From the NCBI GenBank assembly GCA_964445435.1, contig CAYUKU010000003.1, forward strand, positions 841 through 64,840: a stretch of DNA of 64,000 bases, written 5' to 3'. The stretch is from an uncultured Gammaproteobacteria bacterium. GTDB lineage: Bacteria > Patescibacteriota > Microgenomatia > UBA10105 > UBA927. The position numbers and the translations under genes were made by a program. Shown one piece after another: positions 14,929-38,984 of this stretch; position 1 is the stretch's first letter, and each line of letters begins with the position of its first letter. The notes beneath the pieces are model-generated. The model saw only the letters and a program-made list of their open reading frames with translations. It did no database searches and was not told the origin of the DNA.

Positions 14929-15669
14929 CTATTTCAGCAGGTAAAGTTTGCTACGCGTAAGAAACGAATGGAAACTCATCATAAACGCGACGAGTGCCCC
15001 TGGTACACCGTCTAAGAACCCCAGACGAAGGAAGTAGTTGAAGAAAAACTTCGCCAGAGGGTAGCCGATAATCTGGACAATTGAACTTCGTACACCCTGC
15101 GCATGAAGAAGCCGCGCATTCAGACTAGAATACCGGTCAATTTCCTTGATAAATTGTGCGACGTCTTGATGGGGGAAATGTACAAGTGGCTGTGCGAGTG
15201 TTTTTGTCGGACCCTTCACGTCCCATATCTCGTGTACCGGACGAATCCATACCCCTGCTTTTCTCTTGGCGAGGCGCAAGAGCCGGATATGAGCAGTCTC
15301 TCCGTAACGCAATTCCCTCCCCCACAGGGCGTCTCGGCGTGAAAGATAATACCCAAGTATTTCGCGGTTATCGGGATTCTCAATTGCTCTTCGAATCTCC
15401 TCGGCAAGAGCATCACTGACAACTTCATCAGAATCAACGAAAAGAACCCATTCCCCTTTTGCCTTGGAGAGGGCGAAATTGCGCTGCGCGGCGAAATCGT
15501 CACCCAGTGCATGATTATATACCGCCGCACCTCCTTTTTTGGCAACCTGCGGCGTCTGGTCTGTTGATTCGTCGTCTATAACAATGATTTCATCGCACCA
15601 CGCGACGCTTGCGAGCGCTTTTGGCAGCGTGTTTTGGTCATTGTGCGAGAGAATGACTGCGGATATCAT
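14929..15669 (-). CDS. Family 2 glycosyltransferase (GT2)
   Basis: MISAVILSHNDQNTLPKALASVAWCDEIIVIDDESTDQT...VLFVDSDEVV carries the DxD-type motifs. The ORF is open to 15723 but the likely start is the ATG at 15669. Confidence 0.8.
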   Translation of the reverse strand: MISAVILSHNDQNTLPKALASVAWCDEIIVIDDESTDQTPQVAKKGGAAVYNHALGDDFAAQRNFALSKAKGEWVLFVDSDEVVSDALAEEIRRAIENPDNREILGYYLSRRDALWGRELRYGETAHIRLLRLAKRKAGVWIRPVHEIWDVKGPTKTLAQPLVHFPHQDVAQFIKEIDRYSSLNARLLHAQGVRSSIVQIIGYPLAKFFFNYFLRLGFLDGVPGALVAFMMSFHSFLTRSKLYLLK

Positions 15670-16817
15670 TGGAATTGATTGTACACCTAAAACGGGGTTT
15701 CTATACACTGGGCCGGATGTCACTGAGGAACATTCTTCCTTTCATTTTATTCGTATATTTGACGGGCTTTCTTGCCCATGCTGCTATCGTTGGGAAAACG
15801 GTCTACGGAGACGGCGCGTATTACTACTCCTGGTTACGATCAATCGCGATTGACCACGACCTGGATTTCCGAAATGACTATCGCCTCTTTGAAATCACAC
15901 AGAAAACGACGCAGGTCGGACTCATCGGCAATATCTATCCCATAGGGCCTGCACTATTCTGGTGGCCGCTTTTCACGGCGATAGATGTGGTTGTCCGCGG
16001 ACGGGGCATAAGCATGCCGTATCAGATCGGCATCGGCATCGGTGGCGTATGGTATGCCCTCTTTGGGCTACTTCTTCTTTTTGGGATTCTGCGGAAATTT
16101 GCCTCAGAGAAAATCTCCCTTACTTCGCTTCTTGCCGTTGCCTTCGCGACAAACCTGTGGTTTTACGGGTCACTTGATACTGTCAATTCTCACGCGCTCT
16201 CGTTTGCACTCGCGACGGTGTTTTTATCTCTCTGGGTATCGTCCAAGCGGAATCATCTCGTGACCGGAGCTGTCTTGGGGTGCATGGCACTGGTGCGCCC
16301 GCAGGACGCACTCTACGGATTACTTCTTGTTCCCGGCGCTACCTTCCGGTCTCTTGCGCTCAACGGGCTCGGATTTTTGGGCACATTCTCGCTTCAGATG
16401 ATTGCCTGGCAACTGGTGTACGGAAAATTCTGGGCGAACCCGTATCTTGACCGCGGATACGGGTTTGATTTCCTGCATCCGAAGATTCTTCAGACACTTT
16501 TCTCGCCCAACAACGGACTGTTTCTCTGGACCCCGGTAACACTCCTTGGATTCATCGGACTTTTCTTGCGGGATTTTCCCAAACCTCAGTACCGGCCGTT
16601 TCTTATCGCGATCGTTATCCTTCAGATCTATCTCGTTGCCAGTTGGACGACATGGTGGCAGGGCGCAAGCTACTCCGGACGCATGTTTGTGAGCATTCTC
16701 CCTGTTCTTGCGATCGGTTTGACTCATTTCTTCCGTCAAACGAAACGTCTGAACGTCGTCGTGCCACTTTCCATCGTAAATGGTATTCTTATCCTCGTGT
16801 ATTTATTGCAACACTAA
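15669..16817 (+). CDS. Polytopic membrane protein, GT-C-like (PMT/ArnT-like glycosyltransferase fold) or DUF2029-like
   Basis: About 11 TM helices with a large aromatic content. It is divergent from the GT2 gene and sits in the glycan locus. The likely start is MSLRN at about 15717. Confidence 0.45.
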   Translation: MELIVHLKRGFYTLGRMSLRNILPFILFVYLTGFLAHAAIVGKTVYGDGAYYYSWLRSIAIDHDLDFRNDYRLFEITQKTTQVGLIGNIYPIGPALFWWPLFTAIDVVVRGRGISMPYQIGIGIGGVWYALFGLLLLFGILRKFASEKISLTSLLAVAFATNLWFYGSLDTVNSHALSFALATVFLSLWVSSKRNHLVTGAVLGCMALVRPQDALYGLLLVPGATFRSLALNGLGFLGTFSLQMIAWQLVYGKFWANPYLDRGYGFDFLHPKILQTLFSPNNGLFLWTPVTLLGFIGLFLRDFPKPQYRPFLIAIVILQIYLVASWTTWWQGASYSGRMFVSILPVLAIGLTHFFRQTKRLNVVVPLSIVNGILILVYLLQH

Positions 16818-17509: not shown

Positions 17510-18676
17510 CTATTCTTTCAATATTTTTTGGTATAGCACTGCAATTTTCTTCGCCCCGATGGTTATATCGTGAACCGACACTGCCCTTCGACGGGCTTTG
17601 AGCATATATTTCTTTCGCAACTGCGGACTGGTGATGAAAGATTTAATTGCCCGAGTCAGTTCCCCGATGTTTCCTGGTGATACAATAATCCCGGCGTCGC
17701 CAATGTTTTCCGGAATGCCGCCTGTATCTGTCGTCACTATCGGTAATCCGGCTGCCTGCGCCTCAAGCAGCGCGGTACAGTACTGCTCTTGCCATGTAAG
17801 AGTAGGTTTGCTGGGAGCCACGAAAATATCACCCTTCTCGTACATGTGTGGCATTTCTTCGTACGAGGCCGAGGCGAATTGAATCCGATTTTCTAAATTC
17901 CACCGGCGAATCATGTCCTTCATTACTTTCTTTTGACTACCCTCTCCAACGAAAAGAAATGTAAGTGTGTATTCTTCAAGCTCTTCATCAGTAACGAGAA
18001 GTCTCGCCGCCTCCAGAATATCCAAGACTCCCTTGTATTCCTCCAGCCGTCCGACGAAAAGCACGGTGAGCGTTTTTATTTTTGATGAACGGCGCATCTG
18101 CGTTGTCCTGGCCGGCTGGAACCGCTTCGTGTCCACGAAATGCGGAATGACGGTAATTTTCTCCTCGTCCGCGCCTTCAACGAGTAGTGCCTCTTTCGTT
18201 TTCTGCGTTAAGGCAATGATGTGATCAAGCTCCTCCCTAGCCCGCCTTTTAAATCGTTTCCTGCCCCAGATTCCTTCATTGTTATGGGGAATATTTTCTA
18301 GAACAGTCGCTATCACCTTTTTCACATATCCCTTCTTTTTCGCATCCAGACACTGTTGCGTATAACGGAAATACGTTTCCGCCGTGTGGACGAGATCGAA
18401 TCCCCTCAAAGCTTCCTCCAGGCCATGGAGGTAGTGCGCATCCACGAACACTCTATTGAGAACGGGCATCTTATAGGGAAAGTCGGGCGAGTCCATGGGG
18501 CTGGGAAGTTTCACGACCGGGAATGCGAATGATTCATGGTATGGTTTCTCCGATCCGAACGCCGTGATGTCGAAGTCCTTCACCAGAGGTTCGAAGAATT
18601 GCATTTCGTAGCGGTTCAGAAATTTCCCGCGGACAATCGCGACTTTTGGTCTACTCATACCGCTTGATGATTTCAT
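17510..18676 (-). CDS. Family 4 glycosyltransferase (GT4)
   Basis: C-terminal GT4 signature (EAQAAGLPIVTTDTGGIPENIGDAGIIVSPGNIGEL). Confidence 0.8.
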   Translation of the reverse strand: MKSSSGMSRPKVAIVRGKFLNRYEMQFFEPLVKDFDITAFGSEKPYHESFAFPVVKLPSPMDSPDFPYKMPVLNRVFVDAHYLHGLEEALRGFDLVHTAETYFRYTQQCLDAKKKGYVKKVIATVLENIPHNNEGIWGRKRFKRRAREELDHIIALTQKTKEALLVEGADEEKITVIPHFVDTKRFQPARTTQMRRSSKIKTLTVLFVGRLEEYKGVLDILEAARLLVTDEELEEYTLTFLFVGEGSQKKVMKDMIRRWNLENRIQFASASYEEMPHMYEKGDIFVAPSKPTLTWQEQYCTALLEAQAAGLPIVTTDTGGIPENIGDAGIIVSPGNIGELTRAIKSFITSPQLRKKYMLKARRRAVSVHDITIGAKKIAVLYQKILKE

Positions 18677-19736
18677 AGACTTTTTCGGCGAACTTGCGCC
18701 AGGAATAGCGTTTCGATCGAGCTAAGCCTTTCTTGATATACTCTCGCCGTGCTTTTTCATTGTTCGCCATTGTCGCCAGTGCTTCAGTCAACCCTTGTAC
18801 ATCTTGAGGATCGACGAGTATCCCGCTATCGCCTACTACTTCCGGAAATGCACCCGTCGTGCTACCGATCACGGGACATCCACTCGCCATTGCTTCAACG
18901 GCGGGAAGGCAAAACCCCTCATAAAACGAGGGTGAAACAAACGCAACCGCTCCACGATAATACGCTGCCAGGTCGGAAACAGGCACGTGCCCAGGCTGTT
19001 TTACTCTTTCTCCTAGATTGAGTTCTTTTATCAAGATATCTATTTGTGGATCTTTCCAATAATCTCCTCCAACAAGATATAAGTCGAATATTTTCTTCTG
19101 CGTCTTAATGAACTCAGAAAAGCTTCGAAGAATAAGGGGAACATTTTTGCCAGGTTTCAAGGCACCGACAAAGAGGAAATAAGGATATTTTCCTTTATAC
19201 TCAAAACCTTTACCCGCAAAGGTATCATTGGTACCAGGATGTGCAACGGTAATTTTTTCCGTTGAAAGTCCATATGATGTCGAAACTTTCTTTTTTACCG
19301 AATCCGATACACAAACAATATTTGAGGCTTTGTGAACTGCCCTCTCAGTTAGTCTAGCCAATTTTGCACTTGTACCTGGATAATTAAAGGGATTAAAAAG
19401 GAAATTATTATCATGAAGAATAACAATACTATGTGGAGAACCGAAGGGAATTGCCTGTGAAGGACCGATAAATAAGTCTACTTTATGCAACAATAATTCG
19501 AGTGGCAATCTTATCTCGAACCAGCCTTTTTTCGGCTTAAGCACTCTATTATGCATGCGCTTACCTAGATTATCCAGTACGCTCAAGTCAATTTTTTCAA
19601 AGCTATATAACTCGTAGGAATTGTTCCCATCAAGCCTACTTAATTCCTTTAAAAGATTTAAAGTTACCCAATAAACGCCCAATTCTAAGCGTTTATCGTT
19701 TATTCCTAAAGCTCCCGCGTCAACTCCGATTTTCAT
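18651..19736 (-). CDS. Family 4 glycosyltransferase (GT4); base composition shifts inside the gene
   Basis: EGFCLPAVEAMASGCPVIGSTTGAFPEVVGDSGILVDP. The 5' two-thirds (about 19020-19736) is visibly AT-rich and the 3' third is GC-normal. Confidence 0.8.
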   Translation of the reverse strand: MKIGVDAGALGINDKRLELGVYWVTLNLLKELSRLDGNNSYELYSFEKIDLSVLDNLGKRMHNRVLKPKKGWFEIRLPLELLLHKVDLFIGPSQAIPFGSPHSIVILHDNNFLFNPFNYPGTSAKLARLTERAVHKASNIVCVSDSVKKKVSTSYGLSTEKITVAHPGTNDTFAGKGFEYKGKYPYFLFVGALKPGKNVPLILRSFSEFIKTQKKIFDLYLVGGDYWKDPQIDILIKELNLGERVKQPGHVPVSDLAAYYRGAVAFVSPSFYEGFCLPAVEAMASGCPVIGSTTGAFPEVVGDSGILVDPQDVQGLTEALATMANNEKARREYIKKGLARSKRYSWRKFAEKVYEIIKRYE

Positions 19737-20616
19737 AAAGATGTTTCAAGTATTTAAGTATTCCGTCAAATACTCCTCGGAACGGAGTCACTAGAGAATT
19801 TATACTTACTTCTCTACCGAATCCGAACATACATCTTAGAATCCAATTCACTCTGGTGATGACAAAAAATGGAAAAAGGAATAAGTTTCTATTCTTTAGA
19901 AAAAAGTAGGTTTCGTTACTAAAGAAGTGGAAATACCAAAAAAGTCTATTGTCTACTTTCCGCGCTCCTCCGTGCGGTTCTCTTAGGTGATAAACCAAGG
20001 CTTTTGGTTCGAAAATAATTTTGTATCCCTTTGCTTTAGCGCGAAGGGATAAGTCTGATTCTTCTCTCATTGCATTGCCGGTAAATTTTTCGTCGAATCC
20101 GCCAATCTCCTCAAATAACGTACGGCGCCAACTAGCGTTGCACCCAATAACCGTATCGATTTCCTGTTTAACAGTGGACGAATAGCCATCTGAAAAAATC
20201 GCCAATTTAGAAATTCTTCCAACTTTATCATTCGTATGTTGAATATTTTGTCCATATGCTATTGATCGCCCGCAGACTGCTGCAACGTTATCATCGGCAT
20301 AAGATAACTCGTGGTTCTGAACTAGGTTGGGCATGGCTACGACGTCGTCGTCTAAAAAAAGCAGATATTTTCCAGTGGCGACATTTGCGCCGACATTTTT
20401 CGCATGCGACGTGCTTGCCTCAGAAAGATATATATATTTAAGTTTTAGATCTTTTTGCTTTGCAATTGTGGCTATAATTTGTTTGTTGTTAACTTCTTGC
20501 TCTACTACGACTATCTCCCTAATAAACTCTTTTTCTGTTACTAAAGAGTTAAGCAATCGAACTAAACTTTTTCTTCTCCTATATGTGGGAACTACAATAG
20601 AAAAATTAGCCCTCAT
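19720..20616 (-). CDS. Family 2 glycosyltransferase (GT2)
   Basis: FSIVVPTYRRRKSLVRLLNSL...YLLFLDDDVV carries the GT2 DxD region. The DNA is AT-rich. Confidence 0.75.
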   Translation of the reverse strand: MRANFSIVVPTYRRRKSLVRLLNSLVTEKEFIREIVVVEQEVNNKQIIATIAKQKDLKLKYIYLSEASTSHAKNVGANVATGKYLLFLDDDVVAMPNLVQNHELSYADDNVAAVCGRSIAYGQNIQHTNDKVGRISKLAIFSDGYSSTVKQEIDTVIGCNASWRRTLFEEIGGFDEKFTGNAMREESDLSLRAKAKGYKIIFEPKALVYHLREPHGGARKVDNRLFWYFHFFSNETYFFLKNRNLFLFPFFVITRVNWILRCMFGFGREVSINSLVTPFRGVFDGILKYLKHLYENRS

Positions 20617-21766
20617 ATAAATTAAATAATCGCATGAATCCGATACGTTTTTTGTTAATATTGAATCTTGAAATTATGAAGCGCCTAGCCCTATCACCAA
20701 TTTCTCTTCTTTTCGCGGAATCATTCAGAATCATTTCCACCGCCTTTAGATATTCTCTTAGAGATCCACTATGAATAAGTATTCCGTTCTTACCATCTTC
20801 AATAAGTTCCCTGTTCCCTCCAATATCCGACGCAACCACGGGTAGTCCCATTGATAATGACTCTAGAAGGGCTATAGACAATCCCTCTTGATGGTTCGAA
20901 GGGAAAATAACGATATCGCTTATTCCCAAAAAGTCTCGCACTTTGTCCGTGTATCCAACCACTGTAACTCTTTCTTCCAGGTTTACACTTTTGATTTTAC
21001 CTCTCAAATAGTTTATTAATGGTCCACTCCCTACTATTAAAAAATGCAAACTTAAATCCTTTCGTGTCTGTATTAATTTAGTTGCTACTTGGAAAAATGT
21101 ATGAATTCCTTTTTCTTTTGTGATACTACCAATAAAAGTAATTATGATGTCATTTGCTTCAAAATTCATAGTTTTTCTAAGATTGTTTTTCTTCTCAGGT
21201 TTGAAAGGTTCGAAATGCTCAACATCTATTCCTATGGGAATATATAAGATTTTATCTGGCGATACTCCGCCGTTGATTAAATCTTTTTTAGTTCCCTCGG
21301 ATACTGCAAGTATCTTTCTTGAAAATCTGCTTACAATCGAATACAGAAGCTTTATAACTTTTGACCTAGGAGTTATGAAAAGTGGCCCATGTTCTATCCA
21401 TATGACTTTATAACCGGCTAATTTAAGTATCGGGGTCAGTAGTATTTTTTCCGTCATCGACTGAAGGCATATTAAATTGATTCGTTTACCTCCCATTAAT
21501 TTCCTTAAATTTATGTAATAGAGGAATAGATATAGTGGAAATGTAAATAGTAACTTCACTAATTGACTGTGTGTGCCTATTTCCATACTCAGTTGGGGCA
21601 CAGTTATGGTTTTCACTCCTAGGTCTGAGGCTTCCTTTGAAAATTTTTCAAAATTAGTAAGTAGATAGAATCTATATTTGGCGCTGCGAAGTTTATCGAA
21701 CAACAAATAGTTATATTTTTCTGCGCCACTAACACTAGAGCAAATCCTAATTACTAAAATATTCAT
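20606..21766 (-). CDS. Family 4 glycosyltransferase (GT4)
   Basis: EGLSIALLESLSMGLPVVASDIGGNRELIEDGKNGILIHSGS. Confidence 0.8.
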   Translation of the reverse strand: MNILVIRICSSVSGAEKYNYLLFDKLRSAKYRFYLLTNFEKFSKEASDLGVKTITVPQLSMEIGTHSQLVKLLFTFPLYLFLYYINLRKLMGGKRINLICLQSMTEKILLTPILKLAGYKVIWIEHGPLFITPRSKVIKLLYSIVSRFSRKILAVSEGTKKDLINGGVSPDKILYIPIGIDVEHFEPFKPEKKNNLRKTMNFEANDIIITFIGSITKEKGIHTFFQVATKLIQTRKDLSLHFLIVGSGPLINYLRGKIKSVNLEERVTVVGYTDKVRDFLGISDIVIFPSNHQEGLSIALLESLSMGLPVVASDIGGNRELIEDGKNGILIHSGSLREYLKAVEMILNDSAKRREIGDRARRFIISRFNINKKRIGFMRLFNLYEG

Positions 21767-22509
21767 AATTTGCGAGCCACAAGAGTAAATGCTTCACCTC
21801 TAAAAAAAGGTGAGAACCTTGAAAAGCCTTTCACAAGAAGAACATCGAACGCTATTATAAAGTGCCATAGAAATCGAAATTCCTGCCACTTTTGGAGTCT
21901 CAGTTTAATCATAATTCGGTTAAATAGATGAAAAGCCTTAGAAGTGAAGAATGTTATATCCTCTATTACAAAACCTTTACTTCTTAAACTCTCAATTATT
22001 TCTAGTGGCTTAATACCTTCTTCTATCGGACTTTCCCCCTGGCCCCTTTTTAAGGCCTCATAAGTAGGCTCTCTCAGTAGAAGATAGCCTCCGCGGGACA
22101 GGATAGCGCACCAGTTACTAAGAGCATGTTCTTTGCTGATTGTGTGGTGCAGTGCTCCTAAGGATATAATACAATTCGCTGACCCCTTAGGAAATCTGAT
22201 TGTTTCAATATCACCAACTTTAAAAGTACCTGATGGCATGTTTTTTTTTGCAATCTGGAGCATATTTTTCGAAATATCCACACCTATATAGCGAATATTG
22301 TTTAGTAAGTCGTTACTCAGTATCCTTTTGATTGAAATCGCTGGTCCACACCCCATATCAATAACAACATCCGATTTGCGAATATATTTTGCTTTTAGCA
22401 AAAACATTTGTTCTGGAACCTCCCAAATAAAATCATTCTCTCTTCTAAAAGAATATTTTTTTGCCGTTTTATCGTGATGAACTCGCTCAAGTTCAAGAAA
22501 GTTGTTCAT
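21763..22509 (-). CDS. Class I SAM-dependent methyltransferase
   Basis: VIDMGCGPAISIKRIL (motif I) and CIISLGALHH (motif II). Confidence 0.7.
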   Translation of the reverse strand: MNNFLELERVHHDKTAKKYSFRRENDFIWEVPEQMFLLKAKYIRKSDVVIDMGCGPAISIKRILSNDLLNNIRYIGVDISKNMLQIAKKNMPSGTFKVGDIETIRFPKGSANCIISLGALHHTISKEHALSNWCAILSRGGYLLLREPTYEALKRGQGESPIEEGIKPLEIIESLRSKGFVIEDITFFTSKAFHLFNRIMIKLRLQKWQEFRFLWHFIIAFDVLLVKGFSRFSPFFRGEAFTLVARKL

Positions 22510-23900
22510 ACATCGAAGATTAATTTGTATTCTTTCGTACCATGATATCTTCTTTGAAGGAAAGTAACATATATAGCGGAAACGATAAATTCCGTTATCA
22601 CGGTTGTCACACTTGCCCCCAGAAACCCGTAATTCGGAATAACAAACATATTCAGAAGAATATTCAAAAAAAGTGAAATAGATAGTACCTTAATTATTGT
22701 TTTGATTTCGCCGAAAGTTAGTAACACATGGTAATAAACGTTATTTAATAAAAAGAAAGGAACTGCTAACAAGAGTATTTTAAGCGAACTTACGCTTAGA
22801 GAAAACTCGGCTCCTCCCAGAAGACCTATAAGGGGTTCCGCGAAAATTAAACCTCCAGTGACGATAAATATCGATAAAACAACTAATGCGAAATATGTCT
22901 TACGCAACAGGTCACTATATCTATCAAAATTTGATTTTAGATAATATTTGGAAAGAAGTGGAAAGACGCTTGCCATATAAAATCCCCAAAAAGTAAGAAG
23001 ATTTTCGAGAACCTTGTAAGACAAACCATAAATTCCCACTTCTGATGTAGATTTAAATGCGGCAAGCAACAATGTGTCAATTTTAAAATAGAGAAGCGAA
23101 ATGAAGGTTGTAAGTCCTATGGGAAAACTATTCATCAAAATATTTCTAATAACCCGTTTGTCTATTGACAGATTGAAAAATAGGACATCTCTGATTGGTA
23201 TAGCGGAAACAAATAACCCGACCAAATTTCCAAGAAATACTGCAAAAACCAACCCAACAATATTAAACTTCAAGTAGACGAACAAAAAGGTGAAACCTAT
23301 AGTAATAAATTTTACTACTAACTCTATCCCTGCGACTAAATCGAGTCTGACTCTCGATTGCAATATCGAAGTATTGTAAGAAGCCAGATTACCGATTCCG
23401 ACTCCAAGTATTCCGACAAGAATTGCTTTTTTTACGGTTAATGAATACGGGGAGAAAAATAATCCAATTAAAGATAGAAGCACCGAAACGAAAACTAGAA
23501 ACAATTTTGTATTTATATACGAGGCCAGTACTATCCTTGCTACACTAAGTTTTCCTGCCAAATTTCTTACTAATGCGGTATTAAAGCCTAAATCAGAAAA
23601 AGCAATGAAAAAGGATATATATGCAAACACCAAAGAATAGTCACCATAACCACTAGTGCCCAAGTATCTTGTTAGTATTATCACGCTCGCTAAACTAATT
23701 AACAAAGATATCGTCCTAGAAATAAATTGAGCAATGGTGTTGACAAGGATTTTTCTATCTTCTAGCTCCTCCTCAACAGCTGGTTTGTTGTAGTTCGTCA
23801 TAAAACGACTAACAGATTTTAGCCAAGGAAATAATCCTAAACCCTTGACATAGCCTAATATTATACTTAATCTGAGATAAAGAGGCAGGTCTAAATACAT
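22506..23900 (-). CDS. wzx: Polysaccharide biosynthesis protein / Wzx-type oligosaccharide flippase (MOP superfamily)
   Basis: 464 aa with about 12-14 TM helices. The Leu/Ile/Phe-rich composition is typical of Wzx flippases, and the gene terminates the glycosyltransferase operon. Confidence 0.6.
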   Translation of the reverse strand: MYLDLPLYLRLSIILGYVKGLGLFPWLKSVSRFMTNYNKPAVEEELEDRKILVNTIAQFISRTISLLISLASVIILTRYLGTSGYGDYSLVFAYISFFIAFSDLGFNTALVRNLAGKLSVARIVLASYINTKLFLVFVSVLLSLIGLFFSPYSLTVKKAILVGILGVGIGNLASYNTSILQSRVRLDLVAGIELVVKFITIGFTFLFVYLKFNIVGLVFAVFLGNLVGLFVSAIPIRDVLFFNLSIDKRVIRNILMNSFPIGLTTFISLLYFKIDTLLLAAFKSTSEVGIYGLSYKVLENLLTFWGFYMASVFPLLSKYYLKSNFDRYSDLLRKTYFALVVLSIFIVTGGLIFAEPLIGLLGGAEFSLSVSSLKILLLAVPFFLLNNVYYHVLLTFGEIKTIIKVLSISLFLNILLNMFVIPNYGFLGASVTTVITEFIVSAIYVTFLQRRYHGTKEYKLIFDV

Positions 23901-34199: not shown

Positions 34200-34440
34200 T
34201 TAAGCAGCCATCAAAAATCCGCTCTCCTTATACAATACCGTATATAAGGACGAGCGGCTACTCGTGGTACCACCTTATTCTCCATGAACCGCGCTTGCTC
34301 TGGTTCATGGCTCGATTCCTGCTGTAACGGGCTTACCCGGAAGGGTCTACTTGCCTTTCGGTGTTCTTCCTCCAGCTCGTCCGGTGATGTCGGACTTGGA
34401 CGCTGTTAAGTGAAGTATAACAAGATTGAAACGTTATCTC
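34200..34440 (-). promoter_or_regulatory. T-box riboswitch leader (Ile-specific) controlling ileS
   Basis: T-box sequence AATAAGGTGGTACCACGAG (minus strand, plus coordinates 34261-34279). An antiterminator can be drawn in which ACGAG pairs with CUCGU, AAGG pairs with CCUU, and a UGGUACC bulge is left free to pair the tRNA NCCA end. The 5' strand of the terminator is shared with this antiterminator. A stem III (CCATGAACC...GGTTCATGG) lies upstream, and a candidate specifier AUCA lies in the upstream region. Confidence 0.75.
34213..34257 (-). terminator. Intrinsic terminator of the ileS T-box leader
   Basis: The minus strand reads CCGCTCGTCCTTATATACGGTATTGTATAAGGAGAGCGG followed by ATTTTT, 74 nt upstream of the ileS ATG. 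Confidence 0.75.
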
Positions 34441-34597
34441 AACTCCTCTGTCTTAAAAACGCAGCGTCACCGCCTCCATATTTGTTTACGAAGGTAGGGG
34501 CTACCTTCTTCTGGTAGTAACGGATACCGTTTTTCTGAGATAGTGTATATCCTTCTCCGTTAAGACCGATGTGATGCTTTGAAGAATCGTATGCCAT
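34439..34597 (-). CDS. Small hypothetical protein (52 aa)
   Basis: Hand translation gives MAYDSSKHHIGLNGEGYTLSQKNGIRYYQKKVAPTFVNKYGGGDAAFLRQRS. Its ATG lies 1 nt after the stop of the upstream start-less ORF. It is below the ORF-track cutoff. Confidence 0.3.
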   Translation of the reverse strand: MAYDSSKHHIGLNGEGYTLSQKNGIRYYQKKVAPTFVNKYGGGDAAFLRQRS

Positions 34598-34598
34598 A

Positions 34599-34893
34599 TT
34601 AGACTTCAGTTAGTACGAACGCTCCGGTTCCGGAGTTAATAGTTACGTGGTATCTTTTCGTTCCATCTGAGGAATACATGTAGAACCCATCTGAGCCAAA
34701 CGAGCCTTCGAGATTCCTGATATTTACCTTTCGAGAACCCGTTCCCGTGTGCGCATGGAGACCGATCTTCTGAATTTCCGTAAACAGAGAAGGAGCAAGA
34801 TGTTGCAGCTCGATCTGACCAGGGCCGATTTGATCTCCTGTAACGGGAGCTTTGGCTGATGACTTAAAAGTTGAGTATCCTATATTCCCCCCC
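34599..34893 (-). pseudogene. Start-less open frame (about 97 codons) bordered by a G7 homopolymer; possible gene remnant
   Basis: Frame ...GGNIGYSTFKSSAKAPVTGDQIGPGQIELQHLAPSLFTEIQKIGLHAHTGTGSRKVNIRNLEGSFGSDGFYMYSSDGTKRYHVTINSGTGAFVLTEV*. There is no ATG/GTG/TTG before the internal Met, and adding one G to the tract does not create a long upstream frame. Confidence 0.25.
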
Positions 34894-35134: not shown

Positions 35135-35410
35135 ATGCTCTGTATTGGAGGAGAGATAAGCGGTTTATGCGTAGAAGGTTTTCACCCGATTCTTGATTTT
35201 GGTTTTTTTGCCGCTCTTCTTATTCTTCTAGCAAGTCTTTTCACCTTGTTCATTCCAAATGAGAGTAGAATTCGGAGGATTTTAGCGAGCGTATTTGTTC
35301 TATACAGTCTTTTGATTGTTATCTTCAAACTATTCATTGTATCCCTACCAACCAAAGACATATTCTACTATCTCTTCAAAATTTTCTATCCCTTTTATCC
35401 ACTTAATTAG
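35135..35410 (+). CDS. Small two-TM membrane protein (91 aa)
   Basis: Strong RBS (AGGAGATAATT then ATG) and two hydrophobic helices (FFAALLILLASLFTLFI and LASVFVLYSLLIVIFKLFIV). It is convergent with the minus-strand small-gene operon. Confidence 0.45.
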   Translation: MLCIGGEISGLCVEGFHPILDFGFFAALLILLASLFTLFIPNESRIRRILASVFVLYSLLIVIFKLFIVSLPTKDIFYYLFKIFYPFYPLN

Positions 35411-35898
35411 GCGTAGAATCTCCCAGCAAAAGGCTTCGATAATTTATCAATTATGCCTTGAATAAAGGGGTCTATAAACTTCTGAATGACCCCCTGCCTT
35501 GGTGCAGGGGTAGGAGTGGTCTGTGGAGTTCCTACAGTAAAGCTGCCAACTCTAGTTCTTGTCGGAGCTGAGGATGCTGGAGATTGCGTAGGAACTGATG
35601 CTTTAATCGTTGTACCTATTGCTGGACCGGACGGTTTCGTTGCCCCTAGCACACTTCCGCCTGACGAAGCATTAGCTACCGAACGAGCTGATGGGACTGC
35701 TGGCGCAGATGGTCGTGATGGAGCAGCAGGACTTCCAGCGGGAGGAGGGGACAAACCAGTCGCTTTTGCTAACTCGGTACAAATTCCATTGGGAAGATAT
35801 CCATGATTCGGCTTTGCAGAAACCCGTAGCTGAGCCTCAATAAGAAGCGTTTTTGACAAACGAACATATGGTGCAGTTCTATTATATTTTCCTTTCAT
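35407..35898 (-). CDS. Pro/Ser/Ala/Thr-rich low-complexity protein (163 aa), last gene of the small-gene operon
   Basis: Structured N-terminal 50 aa (MKGKYNRTAPYVRLSKTLLIEAQLRVSAKPNHGYLPNGICTELAKATG), a PSAT-rich disordered core and a conserved-looking C-terminus (GVIQKFIDPFIQGIIDKLSKPF). Its start overlaps the end of the upstream zinc-ribbon ORF by about 17 nt. Confidence 0.5.
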   Translation of the reverse strand: MKGKYNRTAPYVRLSKTLLIEAQLRVSAKPNHGYLPNGICTELAKATGLSPPPAGSPAAPSRPSAPAVPSARSVANASSGGSVLGATKPSGPAIGTTIKASVPTQSPASSAPTRTRVGSFTVGTPQTTPTPAPRQGVIQKFIDPFIQGIIDKLSKPFAGRFYA

Positions 35899-36028
35899 AG
35901 CGTTTTTTTCTTTCTCGCAACCTTTCGCTACATTTTGGACATACGGTTACCTTTTCAGACCGGAATTCATCCGGACACAGCGTACATATTCTCCGTGTTG
36001 CTCGGTGATAACCAAAAGATTTAGACAT
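35882..36028 (-). CDS. Small zinc-ribbon protein 2 (48 aa, CxxC...CxxC)
   Basis: Hand translation gives MSKSFGYHRATRRICTLCPDEFRSEKVTVCPKCSERLRERKKRYERKI. Its ATG overlaps the stop of zinc-ribbon 1 (tATGTCTAA). Confidence 0.45.
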   Translation of the reverse strand: MSKSFGYHRATRRICTLCPDEFRSEKVTVCPKCSERLRERKKRYERKI

Positions 36029-36149
36029 ACCCGTTTTCTAAATAAAGCCTTAAACAAAAATGGCACACCCACAATCCTAACCATTCCCGGTTATGTTTCA
36101 GTTCAACTGGCGATACTTCATATCTGCACTCATTACAAACGTAGATCAT
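36021..36149 (-). CDS. Small zinc-ribbon protein 1 (42 aa, CxxC...CxxC)
   Basis: Hand translation gives MIYVCNECRYEVSPVELKHNREWLGLWVCHFCLRLYLENGYV. Its ATG overlaps the TGA of the upstream 61-aa ORF (ATGA). Confidence 0.45.
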   Translation of the reverse strand: MIYVCNECRYEVSPVELKHNREWLGLWVCHFCLRLYLENGYV

Positions 36150-36331
36150 ATGACTTCCCCTTCGTGTCTAGATTCTAAAGATGCGAATGCTCCATACAAG
36201 TCTTCTTCAATATCCTTCATACGGTGTTCGTGCTGTTTCGTGGTTATGAGATTTAACACCTTCATTCCTCCGGCAAGGCTTGACTGTAAAAATGCTATTC
36301 GTATTTTCAAAATCAACCATTTCTTATTCAT
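36146..36331 (-). CDS. Small helical hypothetical protein (61 aa)
   Basis: MNKKWLILKIRIAFLQSSLAGGMKVLNLITTKQHEHRMKDIEEDLYGAFASLESRHEGEVI. It is translationally coupled to zinc-ribbon 1. I prefer it to the antisense plus-strand ORF 36093..36353. Confidence 0.4.
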   Translation of the reverse strand: MNKKWLILKIRIAFLQSSLAGGMKVLNLITTKQHEHRMKDIEEDLYGAFASLESRHEGEVI

Positions 36332-36339
36332 AGTTTTCG

Positions 36340-36644
36340 TTAAAAATCTATAAATGCTTCTACTGGTTTCACTTCTCCGAGTCCTATCGCCCGCTCATAC
36401 AAAACCATAGGACGATCGGGAAACATAAACACCTTCTCCATCCGCTTTCCTTCCTTCTTCCATGCTTCCGGGCTGTAACCTCTTGAGCGTTCGGACATTC
36501 AACGATGAGCGTTTTCTTCTGCTTCATAGCGTCGTTTAAGATTCGTTCCTGAATAGCACACACCGTTCCGTAGATAGGCTTCTGAAACTTCATGTGCCAG
36601 AACTTACTTTCAACTGTTTGTACTTGTCCGTTATAGAGTTGCAT
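36340..36644 (-). pseudogene. Small gene split over two overlapping frames (MQLYNGQVQTVESKFWHMKFQKPIYGTVCAIQERILNDAMKQKKTLIVECPNAQ... / MSERSRGYSPEAWKKEGKRMEKVFMFPDRPMVLYERAIGLGEVKPVEAFIDF)
   Basis: Frame 1 (36384..36644) is protein-like up to about VECPNAQ and then looks like junk. Frame 2 (36340..36498) has its own ATG and a protein-like C-terminus. They overlap by about 95 nt over a purine-rich run (ggaagaaggaaggaaagcggatggagaagg). Confidence 0.3.
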
Positions 36645-37180: not shown

Positions 37181-37553
37181 TTATGATCTTGCGGTCAGTG
37201 GTGTTGGCTTTTCACCACCAACCGTCAGAGCATACCTGAAACTCCTAACTGCCTTTTGGAGGCTTGTAGGTACACCAACCTTGACTGGGTGGCAATCTTT
37301 GGTCCGGCAGAACCATCCCCACTGGCCCTTCGTAAGAGGTTTATTGTGCTTTGGGCACATGGGGACCTCTGCTTGCACATCGTATTCAGTGTGGGCAGTA
37401 TTTCCTTCATCATCGGGGAAAGCACTTTTCTGTGGGAGTTTTGCTTTATATTTTTCTATAAGCGGAGCGAACTCCTCCTCGTTATCGGTTCGGATAACAA
37501 TCTGCTCTGAGCGATCTGGACATTTTGGACCACTGAAATTTCTTATCTTCCAT
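37181..37553 (-). pseudogene. Cys-rich small ORF (about 124 aa) whose RBS and ATG are one frame off from the long open frame
   Basis: A strong RBS (AAGGAGGAACATG) starts MEDKKFQWSKMSRSLRADCYPNR*. The neighbouring frame is open for about 120 codons (...PKCPDRSEQIVIRTDNEEEFAPLIEKYKAKLPQKSAFPDDEGNTAHTEYDVQAEVPMCPKHNKPLTKGQWGWFCRTKDCHPVKV...) but has no start. The two frames would join at an A-run (TCCAAAATGTCC). Confidence 0.3.
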
Positions 37554-37740
37554 GTTCCTCCTTTGGATAGATGTACCCGTATTTATGGGCATCACGTTTT
37601 ATGACTCGGAAGACATTGGGCTGGAGAACTCGTTTGTGATATCGCTTGCGGAAGACGTCGGGGATAGCGTACGTTGAGAAATCATCCTCAAAATACAGCT
37701 TGCAGATTATTCTGTTGTAGTCTATTTTTGCTTTAGACAT
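37543..37740 (-). CDS. Small basic hypothetical protein (65 aa), first gene after the ftsZ terminator
   Basis: MSKAKIDYNRIICKLYFEDDFSTYAIPDVFRKRYHKRVLQPNVFRVIKRDAHKYGYIYPKEEHGR. There is no obvious Shine-Dalgarno sequence. Confidence 0.4.
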   Translation of the reverse strand: MSKAKIDYNRIICKLYFEDDFSTYAIPDVFRKRYHKRVLQPNVFRVIKRDAHKYGYIYPKEEHGR

Positions 37741-37770: not shown

Positions 37771-37791
37771 AAAAACCTGACCTGCGTCAGG
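37771..37791 (-). terminator. Rho-independent terminator downstream of ftsZ
   Basis: The minus strand reads CCTGACGCAGGTCAGG followed by TTTTT, 24 nt after the ftsZ stop. Confidence 0.65.
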
Positions 37792-37814
37792 CCTAGTATC
37801 AACCTACGTCTCTC

Positions 37815-38984
37815 TTAACTTCTCTGTCTTAGGAATGCGGGGATATCGAATTCGTCTTCCTCAGGAGGAAGCTCGTCATCAGGAACGGGAGGCGTATAAA
37901 CCGGGGTTGGCGCGGGACGCGGGGTAGCAGCTTGCTGGACCGGTTGTGCTTGAGCTGCATATGGCTGCGGCGCAGGAGCGGGCGTTGCCCCAAACGCGGG
38001 GCGGCCGGTAATTTCCCTCAGCCTTCGTTTCGTTTCATCAAATCCAGTTGCTATGACTGTAATCTTCACCTGATCCACCAGGTGCTCATCGATGGTTGCC
38101 CCGAAAATGATGTTTGCATCCGGATCCACGGCCGAGGCGATTTGTTTGGCCGCCTCATCGACTTCTGCCATCGTAAGATCCGACCCCCCGGTAATGTTAA
38201 ACAGCACTCCTTTGGCTCCCTCAATGGACACTTCCAGAAGCGGCGAGGCAATCGCGGTACGCGCTGCTGTTGCGGCCCTGTTCTCCCCAACCCCCGTGCC
38301 GATGCCCATGAGCGATGATCCTGCGTTCGTCATGATGGTGCGAACGTCAGCAAAATCGACATTGATAAGTCCGGGCATGGTGATAAGGTCAGCTATTCCC
38401 TGAACACCCTGACCTAACACGGAATCCGTGACGCGAAACGCTTCCAGAAGCGTCATTTTCTTGTCGATAACCTCCAAAAGCCGCTGATTGGGTATGACGA
38501 TAAGTGTATCCACTTTATCTTTCAGATTAGAAATGCCCTCTTCTGCTGCAAGCATCCTTCTGGTTCCCTCAAAATGAAACGGTTTGGTGACGACGGCCAC
38601 AGTAAGGGCTCCCATTTCCTTGGCGACTTGGGCGACGACGGGAGTGGCACCCGTCCCCGTGCCGCCTCCCTCCCCGCAGGTGAGGAAGATCATGTCGGTA
38701 TCCCGAAGATAGTCCTTAATTTTGTCTTTCGATTCTTCTGCAGCTTCTTTGCCGATTTCCGGCTTGCCACCCGCACCCAATCCGCGGGTCACCATATCTC
38801 CTATTTGGATTTTCGTAGGTGCCTGGCAGGTGAGAAGCGCCTGGGCGTCGGTATTTACGCCAATGAAATCGACTCCCGCGATCTGATTGACGGAAATCAT
38901 TGAGTTAATGGCATTGCAGCCGCCGCCGCCGATGCCGATGACCTTAATTTTGGCGAAACGGGCTATATCTGGTTTGATAAGCAT
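37815..38984 (-). CDS. ftsZ: Cell division GTPase FtsZ
   Basis: Tubulin signature GGGTGTG within [17 protein letters not shown], plus a disordered, Pro-rich C-terminal tail. Confidence 0.95.

Follow-up and report, generated by a model that had tools for sequence, protein, structure and literature searches.

Tiny four-cysteine ORFs chained by start/stop overlaps in a decayed prophage at the ftsZ 3′ end of a Patescibacteria genome

The DNA considered here is a stretch of 64,000 nucleotides (the window) of contig CAYUKU010000003.1, assembly GCA_964445435.1, positions 841 to 64,840 of the forward strand. On its minus strand, between ftsZ and ileS, three very small open reading frames (ORFs) of 61, 42 and 48 amino acids (aa) follow one another with overlapping starts and stops, and the second and third each encode four cysteines arranged as two CxxC pairs. 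It is probable, if well short of certain, that this triplet consists of orphan early or accessory genes of a decayed prophage integrated into ftsZ, two of them encoding four-cysteine (Cys4) zinc fingers that, by analogy, would be regulators. The triplet is thus viewed as a set of viral leftovers rather than as a conserved host protein complex. An earlier interpretation made from the letters of the window (the sequence-only reading) had recognised the triplet and had missed where it lies, in a prophage, now decayed, that occupies the 3′ end of ftsZ.

The chain opens with the 61-aa ORF (36146-36331; MNKKWLILK...EGEVI), which starts 8 nt past the preceding stop codon. The 42-aa ORF (36021-36149; MIYVCNECRYEV...CHFCLRLYLENGYV, in full MIYVCNECRYEVSPVELKHNREWLGLWVCHFCLRLYLENGYV) has its cysteine pairs at residues 5/8 and 29/32; the 48-aa ORF (35882-36028; MSKSFGYHRATRRICTLCPDEFRSEKVTVCPKCSERL..., in full MSKSFGYHRATRRICTLCPDEFRSEKVTVCPKCSERLRERKKRYERKI) has them at residues 15/18 and 30/33 and ends in a basic C-terminal helix. 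Next comes a 163-aa Pro/Ser-rich ORF (35407-35898), likewise on the minus strand. At the first junction the ATG of the 42-aa ORF sits on the upstream TGA (ATGA, a 4-nt overlap), at the second the ATG of the 48-aa ORF sits on the upstream TAA (ATGTCTAA, an 8-nt overlap), and at the third the 48- and 163-aa ORFs overlap by 17 nt. Retranslation of the minus strand returned the ORFs, cysteine pairs and overlaps exactly as the sequence-only reading had described them, and same-strand start/stop overlap of this kind is the geometry of a translationally coupled operon. A sigma-70-like promoter match (TTGAAA-16-TACAGT, 36283-36310, minus strand) falls within the 5′ part of the 61-aa ORF; from it, transcription would start just 5′ of an internal Met23 (ATG at 36265), and the product might be 39 aa long.

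The host is a bacterium of the Candidate Phyla Radiation (CPR, or Patescibacteria), since its FtsZ is ~80% identical to that of Candidatus Gottesmanbacteria metagenome-assembled genomes (MAGs). It is essentially without Shine-Dalgarno sites, which precede 2/37 long genes of the window, so their lack at the triplet carries no information. A T at position -1 of the start codon is found in 24 of 37 host genes against a background of 28% (p 3e-6), and all four ORFs of the chain (61, 42, 48 and 163 aa) begin with ATG and have this T. The cysteine pattern can be counted as well: paired CxxC-x6-30-CxxC motifs occur in 4 of the 1046 small open frames of the window, where a Markov-simulated window has 0.52. 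Of these four, two fall out of frame within host genes, and the other two are the adjacent 42- and 48-aa ORFs. Directly adjacent ORFs with paired CxxC motifs would be expected ~3e-4 times by chance, so their adjacency here is non-random.

These counts bear on the simplest alternative, that the small ORFs were never coding and are chance open frames in AT-richer foreign DNA. Such frames would have no homologues, as is the case here, and gene callers might well disagree about them: the 61-aa ORF is in the NCBI record, the 42- and 48-aa ORFs were never called, and what the Logan assembly has instead is an alternative frame of 37 aa besides several ORFs on the antisense strand. In codon score, too, the 42- and 48-aa ORFs (-0.12 and -0.31 bits/codon) fall in the spurious range (-0.15 +/- 0.13), on a scoring that is host-trained and weak for foreign, Cys/Arg/Lys-rich sequence. 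However, the 61-aa ORF, at +0.16 bits/codon, scores inside the coding range (0.23 +/- 0.11), and chance would have to supply in addition the adjacent cysteine-paired ORFs, an ATG with T at -1 at every start and exact start/stop overlaps; the alternative is very unlikely indeed. An antisense 86-aa ORF (36093-36353, plus strand) that the sequence-only reading had set aside as spurious does look so, with a codon score of -0.19 bits/codon, within the spurious range, and no homology in tblastx of the upstream insert, in all frames, against related phage loci.

Whether the ORFs are separate genes or pieces of a broken one can be judged from their junctions. The frames run 1>0>1>2, and homopolymers (G4, A4 and A7) lie at the three junctions, so that a 1-nt indel at each would fuse the frames. 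Frameshifts were simulated as random +/-1 indels in host genes, and the number of nucleotides open in both frames was taken as the measure: the median dual-open stretch was 116 nt for host genes and 62 nt for 35%-GC genes. At the three junctions of the triplet these stretches are 19, 14 and 62 nt long. Under frameshift the joint P of these values is 3e-4, or 3e-3 with the 35%-GC genes as a conservative control, and falls to ~1e-6 if an ATG is also required in each stretch. The first two junctions, far below the simulated median, look like designed start/stop overlaps; the third, with its A7 run and 62 nt, is ambiguous. On their sequence, the triplet junctions argue for coupling between genes and against the debris of one broken gene.

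The contrary explanation, that the 61-, 42-, 48- and 163-aa ORFs are fragments of a single ~310-aa phage gene broken by three single-base homopolymer indels, would make them pseudogene debris of a protein made up of a helical region, a pair of zinc fingers, a basic helix and a tail rich in Pro/Ser. It is helped by the succession of frames with short overlaps, by the homopolymer at every junction, by two other genes of the insert that do look frameshifted, and by a weak double-zinc-ribbon match of the conceptual fusion (DZR_2, E 0.026). The frameshift junctions of those two other genes measure 98 and 112 nt, though, and the fused sequence has no long homologue; together with the joint P values above, this leaves a single broken gene quite unlikely.

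A narrower version concerns the last junction only: a +1 slip within the A7 run (~35907-35913) would have split, artefactually, a single early regulator in which a zinc finger preceded a helix-turn-helix (HTH)-like segment, its two parts now being the 48-aa ORF and the N-terminal portion of the 163-aa ORF. A7 is a slippage-prone run, and a frameshift would quite ordinarily leave 62 nt open in both frames (P 0.27-0.52). The first 57 residues of the 163-aa ORF are moreover unrelated to the phage protein family discussed below, and contain an HTH-like 'NGICTELAKATGLS', recognised by eye only, for which no HTH family match was obtained. An ATG with T at -1 is nonetheless present at this start, and overlaps of -17, like those of -11, occur among host genes. 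This version is unlikely, and separate, coupled genes remain the preferred reading of the triplet.

The phage connection comes through the 163-aa ORF and the genes beyond it. An exhaustive HMMER search with this ORF found a single relative (P0007, E 1.7e-5), with which it shares VGTPQTTPTPAP(R/K)QG...DKLxKPFxGxxYA*; the segment VGTPQTTPTPAPRQG...DKLSKPFAGRFYA also matches P0007. In a 15-codon block common to the two (VGTPQTTPTPAPxQG) there are 7 synonymous changes and one R>K, and this dominance of synonymous changes indicates purifying selection on the 163-aa frame. A profile search from the pair extended the relationship to a family of 23 proteins (P0007-P0029), characterised by a universal N-terminal domain, a Pro/Ser/Thr-rich middle with the motif IGTTIKA and a short amphipathic C-terminal tail. 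The 163-aa ORF is family-like from about residue 58 onward, including the IGTTIKA motif, and its GPAIGTTIKASVP matches GPGIGTTIKASIP of P0016. The N-terminal domain (GNSIGSLLRFIQEQKSQSP...GSPIR...QEPL...VVSxKPE), present in all 23 members and in locus L092, is unrelated to residues 1-57 of the 163-aa ORF, and a profile search found it neither in this ORF nor in any of the six frames of the insert. The 163-aa ORF is therefore not a complete member; from its sequence it is probably a deletion chimera or a truncated one. With the domain profile missing from all frames, the idea that the triplet is an out-of-frame shadow of the missing N-terminal domain was discarded.

Family members reside in phage contigs of up to 46 kb with a fixed module order: an SU10-type adaptor, the family gene, a 93-aa gene, a gene of ~1,000-1,130 aa and lysins (CHAP, Amidase_3 or M23). 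A tail-fibre gene lies upstream of the module (PHROG E 4e-39), an 81-86-aa ORF precedes the family gene in L087-L090 and L095, and blocks of tiny ORFs occupy the other strand of the phage loci. One of them, L093 (NCBI GCA_034680565.1, JAXOUH010031180.1), encodes a tyrosine integrase (PF00589; 10678-11670, minus strand), which indicates that the phage group is temperate. In the window, the family gene is followed on the minus strand by a homologue of the 93-aa protein (34599-34883; tblastn identity 50-55%, E ~1e-31, to L087, L089 and L091), which matches all 9 phage loci covering that gene. Its start codon is now ATA where the phages have GTG or ATG, and to judge by this it is probably a pseudogene. 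Then comes a remnant of the ~1,100-aa gene (34439-34597), whose first 44-48 residues are 65-71% identical to the phages and which, after codon 44, runs in-frame into a displaced native FtsZ tail, AAFLRQRS* (the attR side). Family gene, 93-aa gene and ~1,100-aa gene are ordered and oriented as they are in L087, L089 and L091-L096; nine phage loci are colinear with the window, and this colinearity with the phage module identifies the insert as a phage fragment.

Composition and distribution agree with this origin. From ftsZ to the ileS leader, over 3.4 kb, the GC content is 0.44, and in the remaining window it is 0.49 (each half of the insert has 0.439, the host 0.488 and the phages 0.35-0.44); a frame map of these 3.4 kb shows solely small or broken ORFs. 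An independent assembly record (L001) is 100% identical over both insert borders. A related strain (L002 and L003) matches the window at 96.3% identity through the dcw cluster and at 98.7% through the ileS leader, with homology to L002 resuming at 34353; the 3.4-kb segment is absent from it, and its ftsZ-ileS slot holds an unrelated 887-bp filler with one 234-aa gene. In many other Patescibacteria ileS directly follows ftsZ. The triplet-bearing segment is hence strain-specific accessory DNA, and the different cargo of L002 and L003 at the same position marks the slot as a strain-variable hotspot. The filler protein itself (L002:11193-11897, L003:3856-4560) is N-terminally membrane-anchored and has no Pfam domain.

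The borders of the insert show where it entered. A 26-nt direct repeat lies exactly at both (37838-37813 and 34462-34437), and both copies encode the FtsZ C-terminal tail AFLRQRS*, with 5 differences that are all synonymous or stop-for-stop. The copy now ending ftsZ, on the minus strand, reads GCATTCCTAAGACAGAGAAGTTAA. Compared with the native ftsZ end of L002, the ileS-side copy has 3 differences and the ftsZ-side copy 7, so that the former is native-like and the latter imported. Towards the ftsZ end, mismatches between the window and L002 rise through the last bins to 4/60, 6/60 and 10/52 nt, where the mean is 2.2/60, and every codon change within the final 112 nt is synonymous. From this rise in synonymous divergence it follows that ftsZ ends in an imported surrogate of ~110-170 nt and that its native end has been displaced. 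The surrogate, on the attL side, spans 37813-37985 (minus strand), with the AFLRQRS* codons at 37838-37815 and the repeat copy at 37813-37838. Of the marks of a cryptic prophage, the insert thus shows phage-colinear gene order, att-like repeats at a conserved target, absence from close relatives and signs of decay, but no integrase gene.

Between 11600 and 11700 the plus strand of L093 encodes 'YFPTFLRKP*', a look-alike of the FtsZ tail, antisense to about codons 9-17 of the tyrosine integrase. The pattern P[AST]F[LMI][RK] is present in 69 of the 77 Patescibacteria FtsZ tails examined, and the strict tail pattern matched once in 104.6 kb of phage loci as against 0.005 times in shuffles. The site is a candidate attP mimicking the 3′ end of ftsZ, and the sequence match is suggestive of a phage group that targets this gene.

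The following history would account for these observations. Site-specific recombination would have placed a temperate Patescibacteria phage in the 3′ end of ftsZ. The phage would have carried along its own version of the final ~110-170 nt of that gene, synonymous with the original and covering the essential C-terminal peptide AFLRQRS, and would have pushed the native ftsZ end to the far side of the insert. Two later deletions would then have shrunk the prophage to 3.4 kb: (i) one that fused the attL-proximal small genes to the middle of the structural-module gene, giving the 163-aa ORF, and (ii) one that removed everything from codon 45 of the ~1,100-aa gene, through the lysis and integrase genes, to the last 8 displaced ftsZ codons. 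The loss of the integrase from the insert would be part of the second. Subsequent point decay would have frameshifted two genes and cost a third its start codon. Such a deletion remnant is more likely than a small circular integrative element or satellite, because the right end cuts the ~1,100-aa gene at codon 45 and the 163-aa ORF is without the N-terminal domain of its family. The 61-, 42- and 48-aa ORFs would be, or would recently have been, separate phage genes chained by start/stop overlaps that most likely permit termination-reinitiation in a system without Shine-Dalgarno sites. The 42- and 48-aa products would be two unrelated single-domain Cys4 zinc fingers. By analogy with small phage zinc-finger proteins, they most likely served as regulators, early or on the lysogeny side, with nucleic acid or a host protein as the binding partner. 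That the mini-genes have a function today is doubtful.

Mini-genes of this style have a precedent within the phage group itself. The small-gene block of L089 contains two adjacent, mutually unrelated Cys4 ORFs of 69 and 64 aa (15865-16074 and 15674-15868, minus strand) joined by ATGA, which suggests that such genes are normal in these phages. The likeness to the window, in a phage with the same structural module, is one of arrangement: the L089 ORFs are longer than the window peptides and non-homologous to them, they lie on the strand opposite the structural genes, and one is DnaJ-like. This is the 69-aa ORF, which has CxxCxGxG twice and a weak PHROG match to a Q-like antiterminator (E 1e-4).

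Searches for relatives of the triplet itself were negative at every level. All insert proteins are singletons in a 15-billion-protein collection, and a k-mer search of a 5.8-billion-cluster protein collection gave no candidates for the 42- and 48-aa peptides. At the DNA level the whole insert matched none of 50,697 phage records and none of 72,556 plasmid records; the three peptides had no tblastn match in the 50,697 deposited phage genomes; and there was no homologue of the 61-, 42- or 48-aa ORFs, nor of the remaining pieces near attL, in 80 related ftsZ loci or 10 related phage loci. Pattern scans of viral and metagenome contigs with the 48-aa and 163-aa ORFs, the four-ORF read-through concatenate and other insert pieces returned nothing real, the single 19-residue viral match (L004) being dismissed as antisense to a real gene there. 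An IMG/VR scan with the 93-aa and family alignments, seeking triplet-bearing phages, added one extra locus only. With neither homologues nor an orthologous region, the evidence for the triplet is intrinsic. Rfam found only the ileS T-box on the insert, which gives an RNA-gene explanation no support.

The sequence-only reading had called the two peptides zinc ribbons. What stands of this is the presence in each of two CxxC knuckles and four ligands; membership in any zinc-ribbon family does not, as profile and sequence searches against Pfam, PHROG, NCBIfam, PADLOC and PDB all stayed below threshold. In Pfam the best scores reached 16.8-18.9 bits where the cut-offs are 25-27. Families of the zinc-ribbon and treble-clef kinds (DZR_2 PF18912, Zn_ribbon_6 PF07191, DUF2116, RIM2a_ZnF) share the CxxC...CxxC arrangement and give weak local knuckle matches, at 16-19 bits against gathering scores of 25-27, from which no membership can be claimed. 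NCBIfam gave no match to the insert pieces, PADLOC a single non-significant one (Cas10c, E 0.095), and a PDB sequence search with the 42- and 48-aa peptides was empty. The best PHROG match of the 48-aa ORF was DksA-like (phrog_54), sub-threshold at E 0.03. A DksA/TraR-type C4 zinc finger was rejected for this ORF on that E value and on the x11 between its cysteine pairs; the DksA/TraR spacing is C-x2-C-x17-C-x2-C. By these searches the 42- and 48-aa peptides would belong to no described family. Nor are they tandem paralogues, since they do not align with each other.

Single-sequence AlphaFold models place a beta-hairpin at the first cysteine pair of the 42-aa peptide and a helix at residues 30-39 (pLDDT 65.9), and a helix at residues 31-47 of the 48-aa peptide (pLDDT 59.5). 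In both low-confidence models the second cysteine pair stands at the N-terminus of the helix, a topology that would be more like a treble clef than a classic ribbon. Foldseek of the two models against the PDB gave no significant match.

Several points weigh against the reading of the triplet as genes of an ftsZ-integrated prophage, beyond the codon scores of the two Cys4 ORFs and the homopolymers at the junctions already mentioned. The insert contains no integrase and no complete attP. Its triplet-bearing half is tied to phage by position, composition and gene style alone. Without homologues, the 61-, 42- and 48-aa ORFs give no conservation or dN/dS evidence of translation, no promoter is assignable in this phylum, and the structure models are of low confidence, with fold and PDB searches empty.

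The tight overlaps had also been taken, in the sequence-only reading, to suggest that the products form a complex. This does not follow: a -4 overlap (ATGA) is the commonest host junction (6/33) and joins ordinary, unrelated enzymes, so that in a genome without Shine-Dalgarno sites overlap does not imply a complex. A stronger form of the idea would have the three proteins as co-translated subunits of one still-functional complex, possibly domesticated by the host beside ftsZ as a modulator of division or transcription. Besides the tight overlaps, it can point to three ORFs that are intact among decayed neighbouring genes and to a block immediately downstream of ftsZ. Yet overlaps are the default operon junction here, unrelated enzymes included, and ORFs so short would be expected to stay intact by chance. 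The insert is missing from a 96%-identical strain, and between block and ftsZ lies a terminator-like hairpin. The hairpin, just past the ftsZ stop and carried on the insert (37773-37794, minus strand), has a 9-bp stem with 4 GC pairs followed by TTTTAGTTTAG, and is a consensus match only. A working complex is the least credible of the readings weighed here. Also very unlikely is a phage lineage with an ftsZ attachment site and an FtsZ-tail mimic at its integrase in which the triplet is a still-expressed lysogeny module acting on division or transcription; if this were true, zinc-finger mini-proteins would act on the division or transcription of a CPR host.

Orphan genes of a decayed prophage thus being the favoured reading, both the element and its mini-genes have counterparts elsewhere. 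Small phage Cys4 zinc-finger regulators include P2 Ogr, P4 Delta and Q-like antiterminators. The spacing between cysteine pairs is x20 and x11 in the window peptides, differing from that of Ogr, with x22 followed by C-x4-C, and from the x17 of DksA/TraR. Mu Com is another small phage Cys4 zinc-finger regulator, a translational activator of mom (PMC6483171). The Com/Ogr type and the window peptides have in common that they are tiny phage proteins (~40-70 aa) organised around four cysteines, with genes that lie in early or regulatory blocks. Neither the 42- nor the 48-aa peptide has sequence or profile similarity to that type.

For the element as a whole the closest parallel is e14 in icd of Escherichia coli, a cryptic, 'grounded' prophage in the 3′ end of a gene, to which it supplies a surrogate end (PMC6379469, citing Hill et al. 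1989). Both elements occupy the 3′ end of an essential gene, supply its terminal codons, displace the native copy, and are defective and reduced. They differ in that the target here is the C-terminal peptide of FtsZ in a CPR host, with terminal codons that differ synonymously only. At 3.4 kb, where e14 has 15 kb, the remnant here is also far smaller; its integrase is gone, and of the displaced copy only 8 codons are left, fused in-frame to the stump of a phage gene. The insert thus adds a case to the cryptic prophages that sit at the end of a protein gene and supply a surrogate for it; it is not a new kind of system.

The triplet is an example of unannotated orphan phage mini-genes: gene callers miss ORFs of 42-48 aa even when these carry clear metal-binding signatures. 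The insert documents a prophage remnant in Candidatus Gottesmanbacteria, links unassigned metagenomic phage contigs to a CPR host, and suggests that these phages target ftsZ, swapping the conserved FtsZ tail for a synonymous copy of their own. Phage-host links and integration sites are scarce for CPR bacteria, and the ftsZ-targeting lead, which can be checked, is more valuable than the triplet itself.

The remainder of the insert is in keeping with its reduced state. Its first ORF encodes a 65-aa orphan (37543-37740, minus strand) that is called in the Logan assembly, forms a singleton cluster and has no family match. Next on the minus strand lies a probable frameshifted gene (37181-37598), in which MEDKKFQWSK (ATG at 37552) gives way to a 133-codon frame with no start until late; the frames meet at an A4 run with the 98-nt dual-open stretch, and the sequence is identical in the independent assembly record. 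The 133-codon frame contains CPxH/CxxxxCH motifs. A second probable frameshifted gene (36340-36644, minus strand) consists of an 86-aa ORF overlapping a 52-aa ORF, with the frameshift-typical 112 nt open in both frames; W, C and R abound in the tail of its 86-aa frame, a common trait of sequence translated out of frame. No homologue was found for either gene. Between 36700 and 37180 neither strand has a clean ORF, only open frames of 64-96 codons without good starts, and this interval gave no Rfam match and no homologue.

On the plus strand, right after the 163-aa ORF, a 91-aa hydrophobic ORF (35135-35410) has apparently two transmembrane segments, a codon score of +0.14 and a weak PHROG match (E 0.048). 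Small ORFs on the opposite strand occur at the same position after the family gene in L093 (81 aa) and L085 (46 aa), and the ORF may be a real small membrane-protein gene.

The host genes flanking the insert, all on the minus strand, are ftsA and ftsZ (40335-37815) on one side and ileS (34139-31314) on the other. The ileS T-box leader (34243-34409, minus strand; Rfam RF00230, E 1.7e-7) is host DNA beside the insert; its score of 43.7 bits is below the Rfam gathering score of 93, as for a divergent CPR T-box that default annotation would miss. Elsewhere in the window, a segment of a host gene (15508-15687) shows 40% amino-acid identity (E 1e-14) to a glycosyltransferase/TPR gene of phage L089 (6063-6242), a likeness in sequence that may be a further hint of gene exchange between these phages and Patescibacteria hosts. 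A second low-GC island (18651-23900, GC 0.35-0.44) encodes glycosyltransferases (GT1/GT4, GT2), a methyltransferase and a Polysacc_synt flippase, and is probably a horizontally acquired surface-polysaccharide cluster.

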